Positions 2,705-47,748 of a stretch of 64,000 nt of DNA are shown in pieces. Position numbers and translations under genes: made by a program. This DNA is from Gemmatimonadota bacterium (lineage in GTDB: Bacteria > Gemmatimonadota > Gemmatimonadetes > Palauibacterales > KS3-K002), in NCBI GenBank assembly GCA_039586755.1, contig JBDHJU010000007.1:27876-91875 (forward strand), read 5' to 3'. How positions within the stretch are numbered: the first letter of the stretch is position 1; each line of letters begins with the position of its first letter. The notes under the pieces are model-generated. The model was not told where the DNA came from and did not search any database. It saw only the letters and a list, made by a program, of their open reading frames with translations.

Positions 2705-2712
2705 GAGAATCT

Positions 2713-2830
2713 GGGATTCGGGGATTCGAAGAATTGGGGATTTTGGGAGCCGGAGATCCAGAAGTGCTTCGCACGTCTGGACCTCTGCAAATCGCCGAAT
2801 CCCCGAATCCCCGAATCCCCGAATCATTGC
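2713..2830. repeat. Large imperfect palindrome built from octamer repeats: (GATTCGGG)x4 ... nested palindrome ... (CCCGAATC)x4
   Basis: 2714-2748 reads gggattcggggattcgaagaattggggattttggg. 2795-2826 reads gccgaatccccgaatccccgaatccccgaatc, the inverted complement. Centre has a nested palindrome CCAGAaGTGCttcGCACgTCTGG. Confidence 0.7.
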
Positions 2831-3994: not shown

Positions 3995-4858
3995 TTGGGC
4001 GGGACTCCGGAGCTAAGGGCGAAACGGCCGGCGCGCCGTGACCTCTTGGCCCTCCTCTTCTTACTGCTCGGCGCAGTCGTCCTCATGACCTTGCCACACG
4101 AGCGTCAGCTTGCCTTGGCGACGGCAGTGCGTTCGACGGTTCTAGCACCGGTCCTTCGCCTCCACAGCTGGTTGTCGGACACAAGGACGGCACGCGCGAG
4201 TTTCCGGCAACTGGCGACGGAGCGCGATTCGCTGGCCGTGCAGGTGCTGGCGCTGCAGGCGGTGGAGGAGGAGAACCTGCGGCTGCGGGCATTGCTCGAG
4301 CTGGCCGAGCGTGGGAGAGACCGCTTCCGACCGGCTAACCTGACGCCGGCAGGTCGAGCCGGTGAAGGTGTGAAGCGCTCGTTCGTGCTGGATGTGGGAT
4401 CGAGCGTGGGTGTCGCGACCGACGCACCGGTAGTCGCACCCGGCGGGCTGATAGGCATCGTACGATCGGTCTTCCCAGGCCAGGCGGCCGGCGACTTCTG
4501 GACGCACCCGGATTTCCGGGTCAGCGTGATGACGACCGACGGCAGTGTATTCGGGATTATCAGACCGCTCTCTGGCACGCCCTTGGCCATGTCGCTCGAG
4601 GGTGCTCCGTTCCAGGCCGAGCTTCCCGCCGGCACCGAGCTGGTGACCTCCGGGCTGGGCGGGATCTTCCCCCGCGGTATCCCGATCGGTTGGGTCACCC
4701 GGCAGACGGCGGAAGAGGCCGGTTGGGCGAAGAGCTACCTGGTCGAGCCGGCGGTTCACCCGGACGCCGTGCGCGAGGTGATGGTGCTGGTCGAGCGTGC
4801 CGATACGCTGGATGTGACGGGCCTCTGGGAACGGCCCGAGACGGGTGACGGGCGCTGA
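3995..4858 (+). CDS. mreC: Rod shape-determining protein MreC
   Basis: ORF track gives 3920-4858 with GTG start overlapping mreB by 70 nt. Likely true start is TTG ~3995 just after the mreB stop. N-terminal TM helix LLALLFLLLGAVVLMTL and coiled-coil region. Position between mreB and mreD. Confidence 0.8.
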   Translation: MGGTPELRAKRPARRDLLALLFLLLGAVVLMTLPHERQLALATAVRSTVLAPVLRLHSWLSDTRTARASFRQLATERDSLAVQVLALQAVEEENLRLRALLELAERGRDRFRPANLTPAGRAGEGVKRSFVLDVGSSVGVATDAPVVAPGGLIGIVRSVFPGQAAGDFWTHPDFRVSVMTTDGSVFGIIRPLSGTPLAMSLEGAPFQAELPAGTELVTSGLGGIFPRGIPIGWVTRQTAEEAGWAKSYLVEPAVHPDAVREVMVLVERADTLDVTGLWERPETGDGR

Positions 4859-4860
4859 TC

Positions 4861-5334
4861 TTGGCTAAGGAAACGGGGCCCCGGTTTGGACTGGTCGGCG
4901 CCATATTGGTGCTGACGTTCTTTCATTTCGCACTCGCCCCGCTCTTCGATCGGTGGTTTGCCGGCCCGAACCTATTGCTTTGCGCGGTTCTCGTCTCGGC
5001 CCGCCAGCTGCGCCCCGGTATGGCCGCAGTGGTGGGTTTCATCCTCGGTGTTCTCGAGGATGCCATGGCCGTCAGCCACTTCGGCCTGGGGACGCTGCTG
5101 CTGGTTCTGATGGCGTACATCGGCTCGCTGACGCGGGACACGTTCGTGGGTGAGGAGCCCCTGTTCATCGGCACCTACCTGTTTGTCGGAACGTGGGTGT
5201 ACGAGACCGCGATCTTCCTGATCCTCGGGGCCAGCGGTGACCCGCTGTCTTACATCTTTCTGCGGGCTCCACTCGACGGACTCGCCACTGCTGTCATCGG
5301 GTACCTGACCTTGCCGTTCGTGAGGGCCCGATGA
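4861..5334 (+). CDS. mreD: Rod shape-determining protein MreD
   Basis: 157-aa polytopic membrane protein directly after mreC. Stop overlaps next start (ATGA). Confidence 0.75.
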   Translation: MAKETGPRFGLVGAILVLTFFHFALAPLFDRWFAGPNLLLCAVLVSARQLRPGMAAVVGFILGVLEDAMAVSHFGLGTLLLVLMAYIGSLTRDTFVGEEPLFIGTYLFVGTWVYETAIFLILGASGDPLSYIFLRAPLDGLATAVIGYLTLPFVRAR

Positions 5335-7133
5335 GGACTATCTCGCGGTCGCACCATGTGTACATCCGCGGGCGCGGACGCCTGGCACGCTGGCTGGCAC
5401 TGCTGGTCGTCATCGGCTTGGGCATCCAATTCTTCAGGGTTCAGATCCTCAAGCACACTACCTACGCGCTCCAGTCGGAGGGCAATAGAGTCCGCCAGCT
5501 CCCTGTCCCGGCGGCGCGCGGTACGATCTACGATCGCAACGGCGAGGTGATCGCGGAGAACGTGCCCGGCTACTCGATAGCCGTTCTGCCGCTCTCCATA
5601 GACTCGTTGCGCGTGGTGCTCGATGAACTGGCGCCGATACTCGAGCTGTCCGGCGAGCAGTTCGAGCGTATGGTAGAGAACTATCGTCGACACCCCAACC
5701 GCCCGATCACCGTGGCGCGGAACGCCAGCTTCGCCGAGGTCTCTGCTATCGAAGAGCGGCGCGCCCACCTGCCCGGCGGTATAGTGATCGAGGCAGCCCC
5801 GAAGCGGCTCTACACTCATAACTCGCTGCTCGCGCACGTCGTTGGCTACGTTGCAGAGATCAGCGATGCCGACCTCAGGCTCGCCGAGTTCGAGGGCTAC
5901 GAGCCGGGACAGATCGTCGGACAGACGGGCGTAGAGCGCGTCTACGATCGACTGCTCGCCGGTACTCCGGGTGTGCGATACGTGGAGGTGAGTGCGCTTG
6001 GGCGGGTGGTGGGTGAATTCAGGGGCCGCCCGATGGTGGAGCCGGTGCCTGGCCGCGACCTCCATCTGAATATCGACCTCGCGCTGCAGGAGCGTGCGGC
6101 CGAGCTGTTCCCAGACACCATGGCAGGGGCGGTCGTCGCTCTCGAGCCCAGGACCGGCGCCGTCCTCGCCATGTACAGTGCGCCGAGCTACGATCCGAAC
6201 TTATTCGTCGGTGGGTTCGAGCCGGCCGCCTGGCGTGCTCTCAACACGGACCCGGGTCAGCCGCTCTTCAATCGCGCCGTCACCGCCGCCTACGCACCGG
6301 GCTCGATATTCAAGCTCGTCATGGCCGGGATCGCGTTGAAGGAAGGTCACGCGGTGGTCGATACGAAGATGCAGATACCGTGCAGAGGCGCGCTCAGGTA
6401 CTACGACCGGGTCTTCCACGACTGGACGCCGGTGGGCCACGGCTCGCTCGACCTCCACGGCGCGATCCGCCAGAGCTGCGATGTGTACTTCTATCAGCTA
6501 GGTCTCAAGATGAGCCTGCCGGTTGTGTTGGCTGGTGTTAGGGACTTCGGAATCGGTCAGCCCACAGGTATCGATCTGCCGTCCGACATCGCCGGCGCGT
6601 TTCCGCCTGACACCACCTGGTACGACGAACGGTACGGACGCAGCGGCTGGACGAACTCGGTCGTGCTGAACCTGGCGATCGGGCAGGGCGAAAACGCTCA
6701 AAGCCCCTTGAAGATGACGCAGATCTTCGCCGCCCTGGCGAACGGCGGCACTCTCCCGACGCCCAGGGTGGCGAGGACCGGGACGGCTCCCGAACCCGCC
6801 GGATCGTTCCCACTGGATGCCGAGCAGCTGGCGGTCTTGGATAGCGCCCTCGTCGCGGTGCTGAACGAGCCGACGGGTACGGCACGCGGTTCGCGCCTGC
6901 GTGAATGGACGCTGGCAGGGAAGACCGGCACGGCTCAGAATCCGCACGGCGAGGATCACGCTTGGTTCATCGGTTTCGCTCCAGCTGAGGATCCGCAAAT
7001 CGTAGCCGCGGCGTTGGTCGAGGCCGGCGGCCACGGCTCGTCGGCCGCGGCACCGATCGTGTCGCGGCTGATCGACTTCTATCTCAGAGAGCGTGTCGCG
7101 CGTCCTGAGAGCACCGAGGTAGGGGGCGGATGA
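5331..7133 (+). CDS. mrdA: Penicillin-binding protein 2 (peptidoglycan D,D-transpeptidase MrdA)
   Basis: 600 aa. N-terminal TM. SxxK (SIFK), SxN-like and KTGTA motifs. Located between mreD and rodA. Confidence 0.9.
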   Translation: MRTISRSHHVYIRGRGRLARWLALLVVIGLGIQFFRVQILKHTTYALQSEGNRVRQLPVPAARGTIYDRNGEVIAENVPGYSIAVLPLSIDSLRVVLDELAPILELSGEQFERMVENYRRHPNRPITVARNASFAEVSAIEERRAHLPGGIVIEAAPKRLYTHNSLLAHVVGYVAEISDADLRLAEFEGYEPGQIVGQTGVERVYDRLLAGTPGVRYVEVSALGRVVGEFRGRPMVEPVPGRDLHLNIDLALQERAAELFPDTMAGAVVALEPRTGAVLAMYSAPSYDPNLFVGGFEPAAWRALNTDPGQPLFNRAVTAAYAPGSIFKLVMAGIALKEGHAVVDTKMQIPCRGALRYYDRVFHDWTPVGHGSLDLHGAIRQSCDVYFYQLGLKMSLPVVLAGVRDFGIGQPTGIDLPSDIAGAFPPDTTWYDERYGRSGWTNSVVLNLAIGQGENAQSPLKMTQIFAALANGGTLPTPRVARTGTAPEPAGSFPLDAEQLAVLDSALVAVLNEPTGTARGSRLREWTLAGKTGTAQNPHGEDHAWFIGFAPAEDPQIVAAALVEAGGHGSSAAAPIVSRLIDFYLRERVARPESTEVGGG

Positions 7134-14005: not shown

Positions 14006-15571
14006 ATGCTCAGCAGCACCTTACCCAAAGACCGCATACTGATCCTCGACTACGGGTCGCAGTACACCCAGCTCATCGCCCGGCGCATCCGCGAGGAACG
14101 GGTCTACTGCGAGATCCACCCGCCGACGCACCCGACCGCGTGGGTGAGGGAGTGGGGGCCCAGCGGTGTGGTTCTGTCGGGTGGGCCGGCGAGCGTCTAC
14201 GGCGACGATGTGCCTACGGCGGATGCCGAGTTGCTCGAGCTCGGCGTTCCGGTGCTCGGTATCTGCTACGGTATGCAGCTCATAGCACAGCTGGTCGGCG
14301 GTGTGGTCGAGAGCGCGACGAGGCGCGAGTACGGGCGTGCCGAACTCGAGGTCATCGAGCCCAACGACCTGTTCGACGGGTTCGCCCCTGGCGAGCGCTC
14401 CACGGTCTGGATGAGCCACGGTGACCGAGTCGAGAAAACGCCGTCCGGGTTCGAGGTACTGGCTGCGACCGACACGGTGCCGGTAGCGGCATTCCGCGGC
14501 ATTGACCGTCCCATCTTCGGCGTCCAGTTCCACCCCGAAGTCGCCCACACGGCGCGCGGCGGTGAAATCATCTCGAACTTCCTTTTCCGCGTGTGTCATT
14601 GCGAGCCGAGCTGGACGGCGGGCTCGTTCATCGAGAATCAGGTGAAAGGAATTCGCGAGCAGGTCGGCGATCGTGGGCACGTGATCTCGGGGCTGTCGGG
14701 TGGCGTCGATTCGTCGGTGGCAACCGCCCTCGTGCACCGTGCAGTCGGCGACAAGATGACGTGCATCTTCGTCGATACCGGACTGCTGCGAAAAGGCGAA
14801 CGCGATTGGGTCGCCCGCACCTTTCGTCAGCATTTGGGCATCGAGCTGCGGGTCGTAGATGCGTCCGACACGTTTATCAACCGGCTGGCGGGCGTGGAGG
14901 ACCCGGAGGAGAAGCGTCGGATCATCGGCCATACGTTCATCGAGGCGTTCGAGGGCGAAGCCCGTTCGATCGGCTCCGAGGTGCGGTTCCTCGTCCAGGG
15001 CACGCTCTATCCGGACGTCATCGAGTCGCTCTCGGTGCGCGGGCCCTCGGATACGATCAAGACTCACCACAATGTCGGTGGCCTACCCGAGGATTTGCCG
15101 TTCGAGTTGATCGAACCTCTGCGCGAGCTGTTCAAAGATGAGGTACGCCAGGTTGGACGTGAGCTCGGACTGCCCGAAGAGCTCGTCGGACGACACCCGT
15201 TCCCGGGCCCCGGACTCGCCGTTCGCGTCGTGGGCGATGTGACGCGGGAGCGACTGGCCGTACTGCGCGATTCGGATGCCATCTACCTGGAGGAGATCCG
15301 CGCCGCTGGGCTCTACGACGAGATCTGGCAGGCGTTCGCCGTCCTGCTGACCGTGCACTCGGTCGGCGTCATGGGCGATGGCCGTACCTACGAGAACGTC
15401 ATCGCGCTGCGTGCGGTGACCAGCCGGGACGGTATGACCGCCGACTGGTACCAGTTCCCTCACGAGGTACTGGGCCGGATCGCCACTCGTATTATCAATG
15501 AAGTCGCAGGAATCAATCGGGTCTGCTACGACGTGAGCTCGAAACCGCCGGCGACCATCGAATGGGAGTGA
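14006..15571 (+). CDS. guaA: GMP synthase (glutamine-hydrolysing)
   Basis: [20 protein letters not shown] GATase start, [10 protein letters not shown]-loop, C-terminus KPPATIEWE identical to E. coli GuaA. ORF track starts 13961. ATG 14006 fits the homologue N-terminus. Confidence 0.95.
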
Positions 15572-16338
15572 GCGTGGCAGCCGTCGCACTTACCGATCTG
15601 GTCACCTACCTCGACGGTTACCTCGACCTTGCCGGTGTCCCCGATTACCCCGACGCCTGGAACGGGCTGCAGGTCGAGAACAGTGGGAAGGTAGAGAAGA
15701 TTGCCGCCTGCACCGACGCTTGTCAGGCGACCTTCGAGGCGGCCGCCGCGCGGGGTGCCGATCTGCTACTCGTGCACCACGGTCTCTTTTGGGGTAAGGG
15801 CGTCACGCCGCTCACCGACCGCCGTTACCACCGCGTGCGGCAGCTGATCACAGCCGATATCGCTCTCTACTCGGCTCACCTGCCCCTCGATGCGCACCCC
15901 GAGGTCGGTAATAACATTGAGCTAGCGCGTGGGATTGGACTCGCTGTCGAGGGTGGCTTCGGCGAGTACGAGGGTCATGCGACAGGGTTCTGGGGCGAGT
16001 TGCAGGTGAGCCGCGGTGAGCTGAGCACGCGGCTGGAGAAGCTGCTGGAATCCAAACCCTTCCTGATTCCCGCCGGGCCCGAGGAAGTGCGCCGCCTCGG
16101 TGTGGTGACGGGCGGAGGCGGAGGCATAATCTCGCAGGCACACGATGCGGGGCTCGACACGTTCGTCACCGGCGAGGGACCCCATCACAGCTACTTCGAT
16201 GCTCAGGAATGGGGGCTCAACGTCTTTTTCGCCGGGCACTACGCGACGGAGACACTCGGCGTGAAAGCCCTCGCCCGCCATCTGGCTGAGAAGTTCGGGC
16301 TGGATTGGGAGTTCATCGACCATCCGACGGGGCTTTAG
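15562..16338 (+). CDS. Nif3-like dinuclear metal centre protein (YqfO/YbgI family)
   Basis: 258 aa. NGLQVEN...[12 protein letters not shown] motif typical of NIF3/DUF34. 10-nt overlap with the guaA stop. Confidence 0.75.
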
Positions 16339-16349
16339 GATGGGAATCC

Positions 16350-16491
16350 GGGAATTCGGCAATCCACGACTACTCGATTAATAGACCAATAGACGATTCG
16401 ATTTGAGAATGTGACCGCGAGAAGCCGTCGATTCCTGGTTCAGATGCTCCTTGGATCAAGACTTCAAGAAGTCATGGATTGCCGAATTCCC
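16350..16491. repeat. 142-bp element bounded by 22-bp terminal inverted repeats; fills a convergent intergenic gap
   Basis: Left arm gggaattcggcaatccacgact (16350-16371) pairs with right arm agtcatggattgccgaattccc (16470-16491), 21/22 match. About 100-bp comparatively AT-rich core. Abuts the stop codons of nif3 and the minus-strand lipoprotein. Confidence 0.65.
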
Positions 16492-16492
16492 A

Positions 16493-16909
16493 CTACCCCT
16501 CTCCCTCTTCCCCAGCCGAGTCCACCCCTTCAGGGTACCTGATCCGTTCCTCGATCTCGCTCCAGACCTCGGCAAGGTATTCGGCGTCTTCCCTATGACG
16601 GCGGCCGAATTCGAGCAGGTCGTCCTCCGTCAAGCCGCGGCGCGCGAGGATCGCGCGAGCGGCTTCCGTGGCTGCAAAGGAATCCTCGGCGAGCTCAGCT
16701 GCCAAGAGGATCTCTATGTACGTGTCGACGTACTCCTGACGGCCGATGCCGATCTGCTGGTCGTCCTCGCCGTTCCGACAGGCGGCGAGCGAGAGCAGGG
16801 CGCTCAGGGCCACTAAGGCCCCGAGCGCCCTGCGCTCGCTGCGAACCCGCGTCCGGCTCAGCGCGACGCCGCCTTCGCGTCGGCGTCCGAGTAGCGGTAG
16901 AAGAACCAC
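16493..16909 (-). CDS. Hypothetical lipoprotein
   Basis: Signal peptide with lipobox LSLAAC, acidic C-terminal region. 5' end overlaps OPT gene 3' end by ~50 nt, so true start may be an internal GTG/ATG. Confidence 0.5.
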   Translation of the reverse strand: MVLLPLLGRRREGGVALSRTRVRSERRALGALVALSALLSLAACRNGEDDQQIGIGRQEYVDTYIEILLAAELAEDSFAATEAARAILARRGLTEDDLLEFGRRHREDAEYLAEVWSEIEERIRYPEGVDSAGEEGEG

Positions 16910-18861
16910 AGGACCAGCGGGAACACCAGGAGCCCGAGCAGGCCCTGGATCAGTGGGTTACTGATGATTACCGGGAGCGTTATGTTGGCGACGATCAAGC
17001 CTGCAATGATCACCCCCATCAACGCTTCGCCGGCCACGAATCCGGAGGCCACCAGGATGCCCGTGTTCGTGGCACGCTCCATAGCGTGATCCGGGTACTT
17101 CTTCGCCATGAGGATCCTGTCGACGATCCACTTGAACACACCGCCGACGAAGATGGCGAAGGTGCTGTAGATCGGCAGGTACATGCCGACGGCGACCAGC
17201 ATCGGCGAGGGTGCCCTGACCAAGATGAGCATGACGCCGAACAACATGCCTGCCAGGAAGAGCGGCCAGACCATCTCGCCGCCGACAATGCCCTGGCTGA
17301 CCAGCGCCATGAGGCCCGCCTGCGGTGCCGGCAGCGCCAGGCTCGGGTCTGCGCCGGGTGCACCGGCGAAACCATAGGCGCGGCCCAGCAGCCAGAGCGC
17401 GACACCGAGAGCCGGTGCCGCGAAGACTACCGCGATGAGCTCACCTTTTTGCATCGATGACGGTGTGCCGCCCAAGATGTGGCCGACCTTCAGGTCCTGC
17501 ATCATGTCGCCGGCGATTCCCATGGCGCAGCATACGACGGCTGCCACACCGAGCACCGCCATCACGCCCTGGTCACCGGTCAGGCCGATGGCCACCATGA
17601 GCAGCGCCGCCAGGATCAGGGTCGTTAGCGTAAGACCGCTGATCGGGTTGTTACTGCTCCCGATCACGCCCACCAGGTAGCCGGCCACGGCGGCGAACAG
17701 GATCCCCGCCACTACCATCACGATGGCAGCGACAAACGAGCCACCGAAGCTCTCGCTGAAGTAGTAGTAGAGGACCCAGATCGGCACGAGCAGGCCGAGG
17801 ATCCCGAACACGACCCAGCGGTATCGGAGGTCCTGTTCTGTACGGTTCTCCGGTTCAGCTCCTTTTACCTGCTTGACGTCCGCCAGCACCCGGCCCATGC
17901 CGGTCAGCAGGCTCTTCCGCATGCTCCACAGCGTCCAGAAGGCGCCGACGACCATCGTCCCCACAGCCAGCGGGCGTACCATCGTCTGCCACACCACGTT
18001 CTGTGCCACGGCGGCCCAGCACGGCGCCGCTGCCTGATTGGCCGTGCACCAGGCCGGATCGGTGGCCAGGGCCACGAGGTCGCGGTTCACAAAGCCCATC
18101 ACCGGCGCCAGGCACCACCAGCCGAGAACGCCGCCTGCGAAAACCACCGCCGCCAATCGCGGGCCGATGATGTAGCCGACCCCGAGCAGGGCGGGTGATG
18201 CCGAGGGGGTGGAGAGATAGATACCGCCCGTGTACGTCTCGGTCAGGTTACCGCCGGCGACGCGGGCCTGACCCCATGACCAGAAGCCCGTCATGTTCCT
18301 GAGCAGCACGCGAACGCCGGAAGCGTTTCTGATCACCTCGAGGAACGCGGCTGTGAGGCCGGCGATCACCAGGTACTTGCCCCCGGTCGATCCTTTCTGG
18401 CCCGCCTTATGGATCTCACCCGCGGCCACCGATTCGGGGAACGGCAGCCCCGCATCCTCAACCAGCGTGCGGCGCAGGATGATGACGAAGAACACGCCGA
18501 GCATGCCGCCGATCAGCATGATCACGACGGAGAGCCCGATGTTGACGCTCTCCCAGACGCCGGCGATCACGAAAGCCGGGATCGTGAAGATCGCGCCCGC
18601 CACCAGCGCTTCGCCCACTGAGGCTGTGGTCCGTGCGACGTTCTCTTCGAGGATCGTGCCGCCCATCGGTCGCAGCATGGCCATGGCGACGACCGCCGCC
18701 GGGAAAGTCGCAGCGATCGTCAGCCCGGCCACCATGCCGATATAGGCGTTGGCCGCGCCCAGGATGACCGCCATCACTACACCGAGCACCACGGCGCGGA
18801 GCGTGAACTCCTTCATCCGCGTGTCTGCCGGTACGTAGGGGTCGTAGGGTTTCGGATCCAT
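16858..18861 (-). CDS. OPT family oligopeptide transporter
   Basis: ORF track gives 16858-19755 (965 aa), but homology starts at MDPKPYDPYVPADTRMKEFTLRAV (ATG 18859-18861) with GGAGGA RBS 7 nt upstream. About 668 aa, multi-TM OPT-like. The upstream 300 codons are a high-GC artefact overlapping the RDD gene's upstream region. Confidence 0.8.
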   Translation of the reverse strand: MDPKPYDPYVPADTRMKEFTLRAVVLGVVMAVILGAANAYIGMVAGLTIAATFPAAVVAMAMLRPMGGTILEENVARTTASVGEALVAGAIFTIPAFVIAGVWESVNIGLSVVIMLIGGMLGVFFVIILRRTLVEDAGLPFPESVAAGEIHKAGQKGSTGGKYLVIAGLTAAFLEVIRNASGVRVLLRNMTGFWSWGQARVAGGNLTETYTGGIYLSTPSASPALLGVGYIIGPRLAAVVFAGGVLGWWCLAPVMGFVNRDLVALATDPAWCTANQAAAPCWAAVAQNVVWQTMVRPLAVGTMVVGAFWTLWSMRKSLLTGMGRVLADVKQVKGAEPENRTEQDLRYRWVVFGILGLLVPIWVLYYYFSESFGGSFVAAIVMVVAGILFAAVAGYLVGVIGSSNNPISGLTLTTLILAALLMVAIGLTGDQGVMAVLGVAAVVCCAMGIAGDMMQDLKVGHILGGTPSSMQKGELIAVVFAAPALGVALWLLGRAYGFAGAPGADPSLALPAPQAGLMALVSQGIVGGEMVWPLFLAGMLFGVMLILVRAPSPMLVAVGMYLPIYSTFAIFVGGVFKWIVDRILMAKKYPDHAMERATNTGILVASGFVAGEALMGVIIAGLIVANITLPVIISNPLIQGLLGLLVFPLVLWFFYRYSDADAKAASR

Positions 18862-19129
18862 CGAGATCCTCCTCGAGGTGTGGGATTCCGCTCTGTCGGT
18901 AGTGGAGCCCACTCCCACCGCCCTCACCACCGAGCGCGCTTTCTGATTGGGTAATTGTGAAGCCGCGACAGGGTAGGACGCCGTCGGCGGCGTGTCAAGC
19001 GCGGGGGGAACCGGGCACCCCGGGGCGCTGGTTTCGAGGCCGCCGCTCCCGTATTCTAGTACGAAAGCACAGACAGCCTCGAAGTGCGCACCCCGAATGC
19101 AAGCTCCCCGGAGGAGGGCCCAATCGTAC

Positions 19130-20287
19130 ATGGCGGCTGAAGCTCGGGACCCACGTGAGACCATCACCCCCGACGCCTTCTCGGTGGCGCCGAACCTACT
19201 CGGCACACCGCTAGCCCGACCGTGGCGTAGGGGTGTCGCGATGGGGATCGACCTGCTGGCCATCGCCATCATCGCCGGATTGCGCATTTCGTGGTTCCTG
19301 TTCTTTTTCGCCCTCACGATCCTTTTCTTCCGGGCGGCCATGCGCCCGTCCGCCAGCGCACTTCGCAAGGGGACCCGCCGCACAACCTTCGGTGTGCTCG
19401 CCGCACTGGCACTGGTCGGGACGCTGATCGCCGGATACGAAGCGTTCGGCGATTTCGGCCGGCTCTCATGGATCGGCGCCGACGAATCGGCGGAGACCGA
19501 AGACGCGCAGGAACTGAGCGTTATGGATGCCTTTGGGACGGCGCGGGACGCCGTTGCGGTCCAGTCGGCTGTGTCGGCGACCGAGATGACGGATGCGGCG
19601 ACTCGACTCGGCGCGCGGCTGCAGAGCATGGGAGTCGAAGGCGCCGAGATTCGGGCCACGCTGGACGAATTGGCCGAGAGAAAGGCGGAGCCCTGGGCGC
19701 GGGATGCCATGACCGCCGCGCTGGCGAATCTGGGCCTCGAAGTGGTGGCGCTCAAACGGCAGGTTGACCCCGATTCCCTCCTCCTTGCCTACGCCGCCGC
19801 GCTGCAGGCGGGTGATTCGGCCGCCACGGGCTCGCTCCGCGAGCCGCTCGTCGATGCGATCGCTGCCGACCGCATCGAGGCGCTGGAGGGAAGAAACGAG
19901 CGGCTGGTCGCCGACAACCAAGAGCTGGAGCAACGGCTCGAGCAGGAGAGGAGCCGCGGGCTCATCAGCATGATCACAAGGATCCTGAACGAGGTCGGTA
20001 TCGAGTTCGGTTGGTCGGCCCTTTACTTCACCTTCTTACCGGTGATCTGGCGAGGACGAACGCCGGGTAAGCGTCTCTTAGGTGTGCGTATCGTGCGGCT
20101 GGATGGTAGACCGCTCGGCTGGTGGTCCGCTCTTAACCGCTTCGGCGGCTATGCCGCCTCGATCTTCACCGGCCTGCTCGGCTTCTTCGAGATGTTTTGG
20201 GACGACAACCGCCAAGCCATGCAGGACCGCATCGCCGCAACTGTGGTCGTGCGGGAGACGAGCGGCCCGGCCCGGTCGGCCGGGTAG
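19130..20287 (+). CDS. RDD family membrane protein with long central coiled-coil insertion
   Basis: ATG 19130 preceded by GGAGGAGGG. N-terminal RDD-like segment (WRRGVAMGIDLLAIAIIAGL), C-terminal half GKRLLGVRIVRLDGRPLGWWSALNRFGGY typical of RDD domains. About 200-aa charged/coiled-coil linker between them. Confidence 0.65.
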   Translation: MAAEARDPRETITPDAFSVAPNLLGTPLARPWRRGVAMGIDLLAIAIIAGLRISWFLFFFALTILFFRAAMRPSASALRKGTRRTTFGVLAALALVGTLIAGYEAFGDFGRLSWIGADESAETEDAQELSVMDAFGTARDAVAVQSAVSATEMTDAATRLGARLQSMGVEGAEIRATLDELAERKAEPWARDAMTAALANLGLEVVALKRQVDPDSLLLAYAAALQAGDSAATGSLREPLVDAIAADRIEALEGRNERLVADNQELEQRLEQERSRGLISMITRILNEVGIEFGWSALYFTFLPVIWRGRTPGKRLLGVRIVRLDGRPLGWWSALNRFGGYAASIFTGLLGFFEMFWDDNRQAMQDRIAATVVVRETSGPARSAG

Positions 20288-24096: not shown

Positions 24097-24367
24097 ACCG
24101 GGGGATCGAAAGAACCTCGACACCTGACAGCCTACAGCCGACAATCGGTTTTCCAGCATCACCTTTACCACCGACTCTCGACGTCCGATGACCGACGGCC
24201 AGCGTCGAACCTCGAACAGCGGACGTCGAGCGTCGAACGCCGAGAAACAGCCGGTCGTCGATAACCGGCTGTCGGCTGTCGACCTGTCCCTCATTCTCTC
24301 TTTCTTCATCACGAACTGTGCGGTCGACAACCGGCCTGGTTTACTCTATTCTTGTAACGTGTTCCTG

Positions 24368-47672: not shown

Positions 47673-47705
47673 CCGGGAAAAGAACGAGCTAGCAGGGCGC
47701 TGCGA

Positions 47706-47748
47706 CAGCCCGACATCGATGCGATCGATGTCGGGCTGTTCGTCTTCG
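47706..47748 (+). terminator. Strong hairpin terminator (15-bp perfect stem, 3-nt loop)
   Basis: CAGCCCGACATCGAT-gcg-ATCGATGTCGGGCTG followed by TTCGTCTTCG. Confidence 0.7.

Follow-up and report, generated by a model that had tools for sequence, protein, structure and literature searches.

A degenerate 142-nt palindrome between convergent genes of a Gemmatimonadota bacterium is probably an old copy of a foldback repeat family

What fills the gap between two convergent genes in densely coding DNA? In a 64,000-nt stretch of the Gemmatimonadota contig JBDHJU010000007.1 (hereafter the window; 91% coding), a NIF3/DUF34 gene on the plus strand faces a lipoprotein-like open reading frame (ORF) of 138 aa on the minus strand, and between them lies a 142-nt imperfect palindrome, GGGAATTCGGCAATCCACGACT ... 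AGTCATGGATTGCCGAATTCCC (16350–16491). The element begins 11 nt after the NIF3 stop codon (ending at 16338), and the stop codon of the opposing ORF, at 16493–16495, lies 1 nt past its other end. This ORF has a lipobox-like motif, LSLAAC, and no Pfam match. The palindrome is bounded by two 22-mers, GGGAATTCGGCAATCCACGACT and its inverted partner, that pair at 21 of 22 positions and are the only matches to this sequence in the window at up to three mismatches, with 0 expected from shuffles; arm complementarity runs inward to 28 nt at 89%. All 142 nt fold into a single long imperfect hairpin, with predicted energies of -59.6 kcal/mol on the plus strand (z = -5.6) and -72.5 kcal/mol on the minus strand (z = -7.6). 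At 47% GC (core, 45%), the element occupies the lowest-GC intergenic gap of the window. The initial annotation of this DNA had described a 142-nt element with 22-nt inverted termini that fills a convergent gap, which stands, and a core more AT-rich than a background of 68% GC, where the core was judged correctly and the background is 64.7%. The identical element is present on an independent contig of a near-identical strain (3 mismatches in 3,777 nt), which excludes an assembly artefact.

We consider this element to be, probably, an old and decaying copy of a non-autonomous foldback repeat, typically 120–150 nt in length, whose family we here call A. Family A is best filed as a new, previously undescribed family of a known class, the small palindromic intergenic repeats (REPIN-, ERIC- or MITE-like), and is confined to a clade of Gemmatimonadales; literature searches by sequence string and by topic returned no match for such repeats in Gemmatimonadota. 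What the DNA records directly is membership of the family, anatomy, context, age, the pattern of decay and the history of the site.

How common is the family? A scan for the 19-nt terminus, covering one genome per species and 8-kb pieces of each genome (copy numbers being lower bounds), returned 37 loci. Thirty of these were in Gemmatimonadota metagenome-assembled genomes, 28 of them genuine copies, while the seven matches outside the phylum approximate the number expected by chance. Recurring termini were found in at least six Gemmatimonadota genomes, and 12 loci lie on a single complete chromosome of 4.8 Mb, CP070812.1. The window copy is single within its 64 kb, and the initial annotation had named as evidence against a repeat that it might be single in the genome and conserved in orthologous gaps, or that no copies bearing the terminal inverted repeats might occur elsewhere; these 28 matches, 12 of them on one chromosome, are the opposite. 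A metagenome collection added ~9 real loci, mostly at sites already known. A scan of viral contigs gave 0 family A-like matches, plasmids likewise gave none, and BLAST of the family consensus against 5,426 complete E. coli genomes returned nothing at E <= 0.01.

Both termini are present in 24 catalogued copies, of which 18 are full-length (120–149 nt) and alignable end to end (alignment A1). A profile built from these 18 recovers all of them, and matches the window copy over model positions 1–138 with an nhmmer E-value of 2.8e-32, the model having included that copy. Interior identity between the window copy and the others is 0.67–0.71. Its two termini differ from their own 22-mer at 0 and 1 positions and from the family 20-mer at 1 and 0, so that it carries the conserved inverted termini, GGGAATTCGGCAATCCAYGA, by which members are recognised.

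Copies of family A follow a three-part plan, consisting of these outer termini, arms assembled from 8-nt units, and a GC-rich central stem-loop of varying length. The units are degenerate (for example, ACTAATTG, ACTACTTG and AATACTCG); across the family, their strong 8-nt period shows in a self-identity of 0.534 at lag 8 and recurs as harmonics at lags 16 and 24 (z = 27, 16 and 11, respectively). When the two consensus arms are compared, 57 of 62 positions are complementary, and the ancestor was therefore a near-perfect palindrome. From that state the window copy has departed furthest, being the most degenerate of the 18 full-length copies (Table 1). An architecture of 8-nt-repeat arms, with alternative termini on a shared body in the sister families discussed below, is somewhat unusual.

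Table 1. Coordinates of the window element, its parts and neighbours, and of related elements (window positions unless a retrieved locus, L, is named)
Feature	Position	Strand	Basis or remark
Family A foldback repeat, complete but degenerate, 142 nt	16350–16491		Profile match, alignment A1, single long hairpin
Left terminal inverted repeat, GGGAATTCGGCAATCCACGACT	16350–16371	+	Inverted-repeat search; equals family-wide terminus GGGAATTCGGCAATCCAYGA
Right terminal inverted repeat, GGGAATTCGGCAATCCATGACT on the minus strand	16470–16491	-	One mismatch to left terminus
Extra GGGAATCC 8-mer adjoining left terminus	16342–16349		Duplicated terminal unit or family B remnant
Left arm, degenerate 8-nt modules ACTACTCG ATTAATAG ACCAATAG ...	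16372–16406		Lag-8 self-identity 0.52
Central GC-richer stem-loop, most variable part of the family	16407–16435		Folds; gapped, variable columns of A1
Right arm modules, badly decayed	16436–16469		Own-arm complementarity 0.55, lowest of 18
NIF3/DUF34 gene (context)	15562–16338	+	PF01784, E = 2.3e-57
Convergent 138-aa lipoprotein-like ORF (context)	16493–16909	-	Last codons resemble family B outer end
Inverted GGGGATTCG 8-mer arrays around a small central hairpin	2707–2825		Arrays, periodicity, orthologous site at L072
Family B loci	L007:5052–5195, L010:6975–7125, L042:3266–3385, L044:2276–2416, L047:1759–1915		
Family C loci	L004:~4070–4120, L011:5462–5631, L017:1683–1754, L066:7712–7774, L072:2734–2921		

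The position of the window copy, directly behind a gene, is typical of the family. In 21 of the 24 copies a stop codon precedes the element by 0–28 nt, usually within 12 nt, and some copies occasionally supply the last codons of the upstream gene. Between genes of the same direction, the next start codon follows at 19–318 nt, counting those cases whose called start is not within the element. Seven copies sit in convergent gaps and only one between divergent genes. Ten of the abutting genes are housekeeping genes (QueG, PolX, Fpg, DeoC, MlaD and FTCD among them), and the orientation of the element relative to the abutting gene is mixed (4 versus 7). Distances between copies range from 16 to 600 kb; replichore assignment by GC skew of 8-kb blocks was too noisy for use.

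Interior identity between copies averages 0.67 and peaks at 0.78 within a genome, and orthologous positions are occupied in different species-level genomes whose neighbouring proteins are 74–99% identical. The two arms of a copy complement each other no better than they complement the arms of other copies (0.688 versus 0.691–0.701), RNAalifold on the family alignment detected no covariation (term +0.64), and neither of these tests revealed compensatory changes. Each arm therefore drifts on its own, away from a palindromic ancestor. Copies are also trimmed: in four orthologous pairs, a full copy of 129–140 nt in one species stands opposite a symmetric stub in the other (34, 37, 45 or 51 nt) in which the termini alone survive, and the 34-nt stub is the exact product of a deletion between two symmetric CATG microhomologies. 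At the window's own site, relatives with NIF3 proteins 87–88% identical have only TGGGAATCCGGG-AAT-CCCGAATTCCCA or TGGGAATTCCCGAATTCCCA, in gaps of 32 or 26 nt; these relatives were found through the NIF3 protein and thus were not selected for the repeat. The proposal that the element belongs to a shared family of small palindromic mobile elements accordingly holds as to a multi-copy family; mobility at present or in the recent past has no direct support, as no target-site duplications were found, interior identity within a genome is <=78%, and no transposase was found nearby.

Orthologous copies do not always lie in the same orientation. For L019:6525–6670 and L026:7002–7147, the left flanks are 0.90 identical and the right flanks unrelated, and the element matches better as its reverse complement (0.88–0.89 versus 0.74–0.77). 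This suggests an in-situ inversion, or a rearrangement with its breakpoint at the element.

Two sister families share these sites. Family B has the ends GGAGGTAGGGAGCGCT...AGCGCTCCCTACCTCC and the same TTGAnnnn modules, and is found by the family A profile through its body, not its termini. It, too, occupies orthologous sites (L007 and L010), and full family B elements lie in the same NIF3 gap of three relatives whose NIF3 is 87%, 83% and 77% identical. The ORF downstream takes its last codons, stop codon included, from the right terminus of family B. In the NIF3 tree, A and B states are intermixed in a near-star, with B in the outgroup. The A element of the window is itself flanked by B-like outer bases, GATGGGA... 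on the left and ...CCCACTACCCCTC on the right, the latter including the stop codon and last codons of the 138-aa ORF; a search of the window for the family B terminus gave a chance-level match only. A GATGGGA... start also follows the NIF3 stop codon in relatives with family B, and the extra GGGAATCC 8-mer beside the left terminus is either a duplicated terminal unit or the outer-end remnant of an older family B element. Together, this suggests that family B probably came first in this gap and that family A later replaced its interior.

Family C, AGGTCGCTGAAA...GGGGACCCCGGCGCC...TTTCAGCGACCT, is palindromic and occurs five times, each time inside a family A copy. At L011 its junctions read TTAA|C...G|TTAA, a possible 4-bp duplication, and the composite 323-nt element there (C inside A) is flanked by a 7-bp direct repeat, ATTAGAT (5330–5341 and 5665–5671). 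This is the only copy with a convincing flanking duplication.

The window holds a further element of this kind in front of mreB. As initially annotated, GGGGATTCG / CGAATCCCC units are present at 2713–2825, and the suspected kinship between the repeat at 2713–2830 and the 142-nt element is supported. The array-bearing element starts 3 nt past the stop codon of the alanine dehydrogenase gene (ald), with 127 nt separating it from mreB downstream. It escapes the family A profile; its lag-8 identity is 0.74. Units of GGGGATTCG or GGGAATTC adjoin family A termini directly at L014, L001, L010 and in the window, and similar 8-mer arrays lie in other intergenic gaps of related genomes. In a close relative whose Ald is 92% identical (L072:2623–2962), the gap between ald and mreB is occupied by a family A element, recognised by the profile at E = 2e-19, that has a family C element inside it; the right terminus of the family A element runs into CCCCGAGTC and CCCCGATCC units that can be aligned with the CCCCGAATC array of the window. 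Shared periodicity, abutting units, similar arrays and the orthologous site at L072 therefore make the two window elements related, and the one at 2707–2825 probably derives from family A by rearrangement. In L073, which is more distantly related, the ald-mreB site has no more than a degenerate remnant of ~38 nt.

Other repeats were seen along the way. Direct, non-inverted tandem arrays of GGGRATTC 8-mers are found in intergenic DNA of related genomes (L002:2752–2860 and L032:3343–3378), one of them ~110 nt long and another in a convergent gap. At a gene boundary of the window (24134–24279) lies an imperfect palindrome of ~146 nt with outer arms ACAGCCGACAATCGGTT / AACCGGCTGTCGGCTGT and an inner 24-nt arm pair, which has no sequence kinship with families A–C. 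A same-direction gap at 47705–47739 contains ACAGCCCGACATCGAT-GCG-ATCGATGTCGGGCTGT, in which 16 bp pair without a mismatch around a loop of 3 nt, with TTCGTCTTCG coming next. This resembles a common terminator hairpin, so that conventional hairpins do occur behind some genes of this genome. A 24-nt inverted repeat at 16788–16840 (92% complementary, 5-nt loop) lies in the N-terminal part of the 138-aa ORF and falls where this ORF overlaps the long call of an OPT transporter ORF; weak Rfam matches there, such as Scr3920 with 26.9 bits where the gathering score is 88, seem to be due to chance. The overlapping OPT ORF, called mechanically at 16858–19755, has 965 aa, whereas its orthologues are called at 641–671 aa, so that translation probably begins well downstream of the TTG that is listed.

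How might family A have arrived at its present state? The ancestral unit would have been a near-perfect palindrome with termini GGGAATTCGGCAATCCAYGA, arms of about five TTGAnTAn-type 8-nt units and a GC-rich central stem-loop. Before the divergence of the sampled species, such units would have reached many intergenic sites, nearly always right after a stop codon, by a mechanism that left no target-site duplication and favoured hairpins or earlier palindromes at gene 3′ ends. A preference of this sort would account for copies lying close to stop codons, for sites being used again and for elements nested in one another. The copies have since been inherited vertically, their arms drifting neutrally and independently in place, with the long palindrome prone to symmetric central deletions that give rise to stubs of 26–51 nt. 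Sister families B (GGAGGTAGGGAGCGCT... termini, shared body) and C (different sequence) have inserted into resident copies or replaced them. As to a present role, the window element would do nothing sequence-specific, except that, as the only strong hairpin between its two convergent genes, it may passively serve to mark or stabilise the 3′ ends of their transcripts.

Several findings weigh against such a history of ancient spread followed by decay. On CP070812.1 (loci L006–L037), 11 of the 12 retrieved copies fall within a 1.49-Mb arc at 2.77–4.26 Mb (P ~0.001; the other is at 0.22 Mb), and four copies lie within 96 kb (P ~0.013). Simple ancient random dispersal does not predict this clustering, which could come from local hopping, a domain effect or retrieval bias. 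Orthologous elements exceed four-fold degenerate sites in identity (0.88 versus 0.61, 0.82 versus 0.66, and 0.85 versus 0.63). In the same genome pairs, elements are 0.75 identical, third codon positions 0.73, and other alignable intergenic DNA 0.80, the last figure covering BLAST-alignable DNA only and being biased upward; with 0.75 for elements against 0.80, no element-specific constraint is therefore demonstrated. The terminus arm that was not used for retrieval is ~8% diverged, as against ~16% for the interior arms, and the window copy and that of L039 share 27 of 27 non-coding terminal nucleotides where four-fold sites are 0.65 identical. We regard the conservation of the termini as a mild excess, which could, together with that of orthologous copies, stem from host-level selection or gene conversion and not from pure decay. 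The sample itself consists of 8-kb pieces retrieved by an exact terminus, which biases it toward copies with intact ends. Finally, we saw no clean pair of filled and empty sites, no young near-identical copies and no autonomous partner.

Some of these findings would fit an element retained by selection on the host, acting as a bidirectional terminator or mRNA 3′-end stabiliser or offering its termini as sites for a DNA- or RNA-binding protein of the host, its repeat nature being secondary. To this we assign a minor but real chance. Copies do lie directly after stop codons, every relative that keeps the same downstream ORF has a hairpin or palindrome in the gap (an A stub or a B element), no other terminator-like site exists in the gap of the window, whose hairpin is strong on both strands (z = -5.6 and -7.6), and the 27 of 27 terminal nucleotides and several orthologous elements are conserved beyond four-fold sites. 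Yet a consensus scan of 15900–17000 found no intrinsic terminator. The interior of the stems is rich in AT, and on either strand the hairpin runs into the flank consensus AACA and not into a U-tract, which speaks against the bidirectional terminator first proposed, at least as one of the canonical intrinsic type. A selected hairpin was considered and rejected, own-arm versus cross-copy complementarity and RNAalifold covariation both being negative. Purifying selection was likewise set aside, as the excess over four-fold sites is lost against the alignable-intergenic baseline. Stubs vary between 26 and 51 nt and families are swapped at one and the same site, so that no particular sequence is required, and in line with the mixed orientation of copies, RNA stability across the family does not favour the strand on which the abutting gene lies (p = 0.51).

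Could the repeat be REPIN-like, a doublet of hairpins that a single-copy RAYT (Y1/HUH) transposase moves in single-stranded form and that is then vertically kept? The extragenic foldback hairpin, the missing target-site duplication, the better-kept terminal segments, the recurrent GTAG/CTAC tetranucleotides of the modules and the long persistence at orthologous positions agree with what has been published on REPINs (PMC3116915, PMC5581495). We think it rather unlikely, however. No RAYT-like or other Y1-like protein was found in ~350 kb around the copies, in what was a weak BLAST test with a YafM query, and no protein family recurs among the neighbours. Compensatory changes, reported to be common in REPINs (PMC3116915), are absent. 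The retrieved copy number is low (at least 12 per genome), and the arms are 8-nt arrays, not two discrete REP units.

A bolder scheme, which we likewise hold to be improbable, would unite families A, B and C with the GGGRATTC arrays in a Gemmatimonadota-specific foldback system that homes to 3′-end hairpins, its members overwriting each other by means of a duplication-free machinery acting on hairpin DNA; or the termini may have been co-opted as binding sites of a host protein specific to a chromosome domain. Such a protein would explain why 11 of 12 copies on CP070812.1 lie within 1.5 Mb.

A classical miniature inverted-repeat transposable element (MITE), that is, a deletion derivative of an insertion sequence with a DDE transposase, mobilised in trans through its terminal inverted repeats, appears somewhat less likely still. 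Terminal inverted repeats of 20–22 nt on a small, non-coding, multi-copy, intergenic element are what this predicts, and the ATTAGAT repeat around the L011 composite could be its footprint. Elsewhere the footprint is missing: at boundary offsets of 0–8, direct repeats in a copy's own flanks were no longer than those in mismatched flanks, which also disposes of the target-site duplications that the initial annotation had suggested looking for, and the flank consensus tGwT|element|AACA merely prolongs the palindrome. No insertion sequence with GGGAATTCGGCAATCC-type termini was found among 60 retrieved loci, nor in the collections of viral, plasmid and E. coli sequences, which hold nothing similar to the family, and an all-against-all comparison of 160 neighbouring ORFs revealed no recurrent family and no transposase-like paralogue beside the copies. 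Moreover, the sister families share a body, not termini, the reverse of MITE families, which are defined by their transposase.

That the element is a small non-coding RNA gene, as had been suggested, or a cis-regulatory RNA element is very improbable. The predicted structure is stable, and more so on the minus strand (-72.5 versus -59.6 kcal/mol). Even so, the sole overlapping Rfam match at the window, FAM13A-AS1_2, has 13.5 bits against a gathering score of 38 (E = 5.6), and the scan, one of the checks first proposed, returned nothing at gathering score in the 1.2 kb covered or in 12 other family A loci; we found no promoter-like site and no covariation, and the strand difference is unrelated to gene orientation. 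Strand-specific RNA structure was tried and discarded, with the minus-strand advantage of the window copy vanishing across the family (p = 0.51).

Integron attC sites are imperfect palindromes of 57–141 nt that lie just after a cassette ORF and have the core RYYYAAC ... GTTRRRY; size, imperfect palindromy, the after-stop position and flanks that often read GTT|...|AAC would fit, but the GTT and AAC triplets are on the wrong sides and copies lie 16–600 kb apart among syntenic housekeeping neighbours, with no cassette arrays and no integrase, and we rejected this hardly credible identity on core-site arrangement and context.

What, then, is gained from an old copy of family A? No new gene, RNA or defence system is revealed. 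Gemmatimonadota are a widespread and poorly studied phylum, and such repeats are of practical concern, as they break metagenome assemblies and can be mis-called as ORF ends; they can also serve as lineage markers. One convergent gap of ~30 nt held two sister families and their stubs among species with NIF3 83–88% identical to that of the window. This provides a clean natural series of gain, trimming and replacement of long palindromes.

Proteobacteria, neisseriae and pneumococci are well-known hosts of small palindromic intergenic repeats, and family A invites comparison with several of these. Correia elements (NEMIS) of Neisseria are ~100–155 nt long, with terminal inverted repeats of ~26 nt, a TA target duplication and a site for IHF. 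Like family A they are gene-adjacent, have length variants made by internal deletion and form long hairpins when transcribed; the TA duplication is theirs, with none seen in family A, which also gives no sign of RNase III processing or of creating promoters. The Foldback (FB) transposons of eukaryotes are of kilobase scale, with a transposase known in some copies; their long inverted arms of tandem short subrepeats, variable in length, recall those of family A, a likeness that is architectural only. IS1397 and ISKpn1 are autonomous insertion sequences with transposases that insert at defined positions in the REP loops of BIMEs. New elements inside resident palindromes are seen here as well (C in A five times, and A in the remains of B), but in our case both partners are small and non-coding and insertion points vary.

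ERIC sequences, or IRUs, of enterobacteria are reportedly intergenic imperfect palindromes of ~127 nt. As in family A, they are often found within transcription units or where these end, are old and for the most part no longer move, and come in length variants produced by internal deletion or insertion. They belong to another phylum, show no sequence similarity to family A (5,426 E. coli genomes) and lack arms with an 8-nt period; we know of no description of ERIC sister families swapping at one site. REPINs, formed from REP sequences and associated with RAYT in Pseudomonas and Enterobacteria, are likewise extragenic hairpins of ~100–150 nt with conserved outer segments and a variable centre, have no target-site duplication, and are vertically inherited and long retained at orthologous positions (PMC3116915, PMC3337134, PMC5581495). 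Family A differs from them in having no compensatory changes, no RAYT found near ~30 copies, a much lower observed copy number, arms that are degenerate 8-nt arrays, and no similarity to E. coli repeats. While it fails each on a tested feature, family A is most like REPINs and ERIC-type elements.

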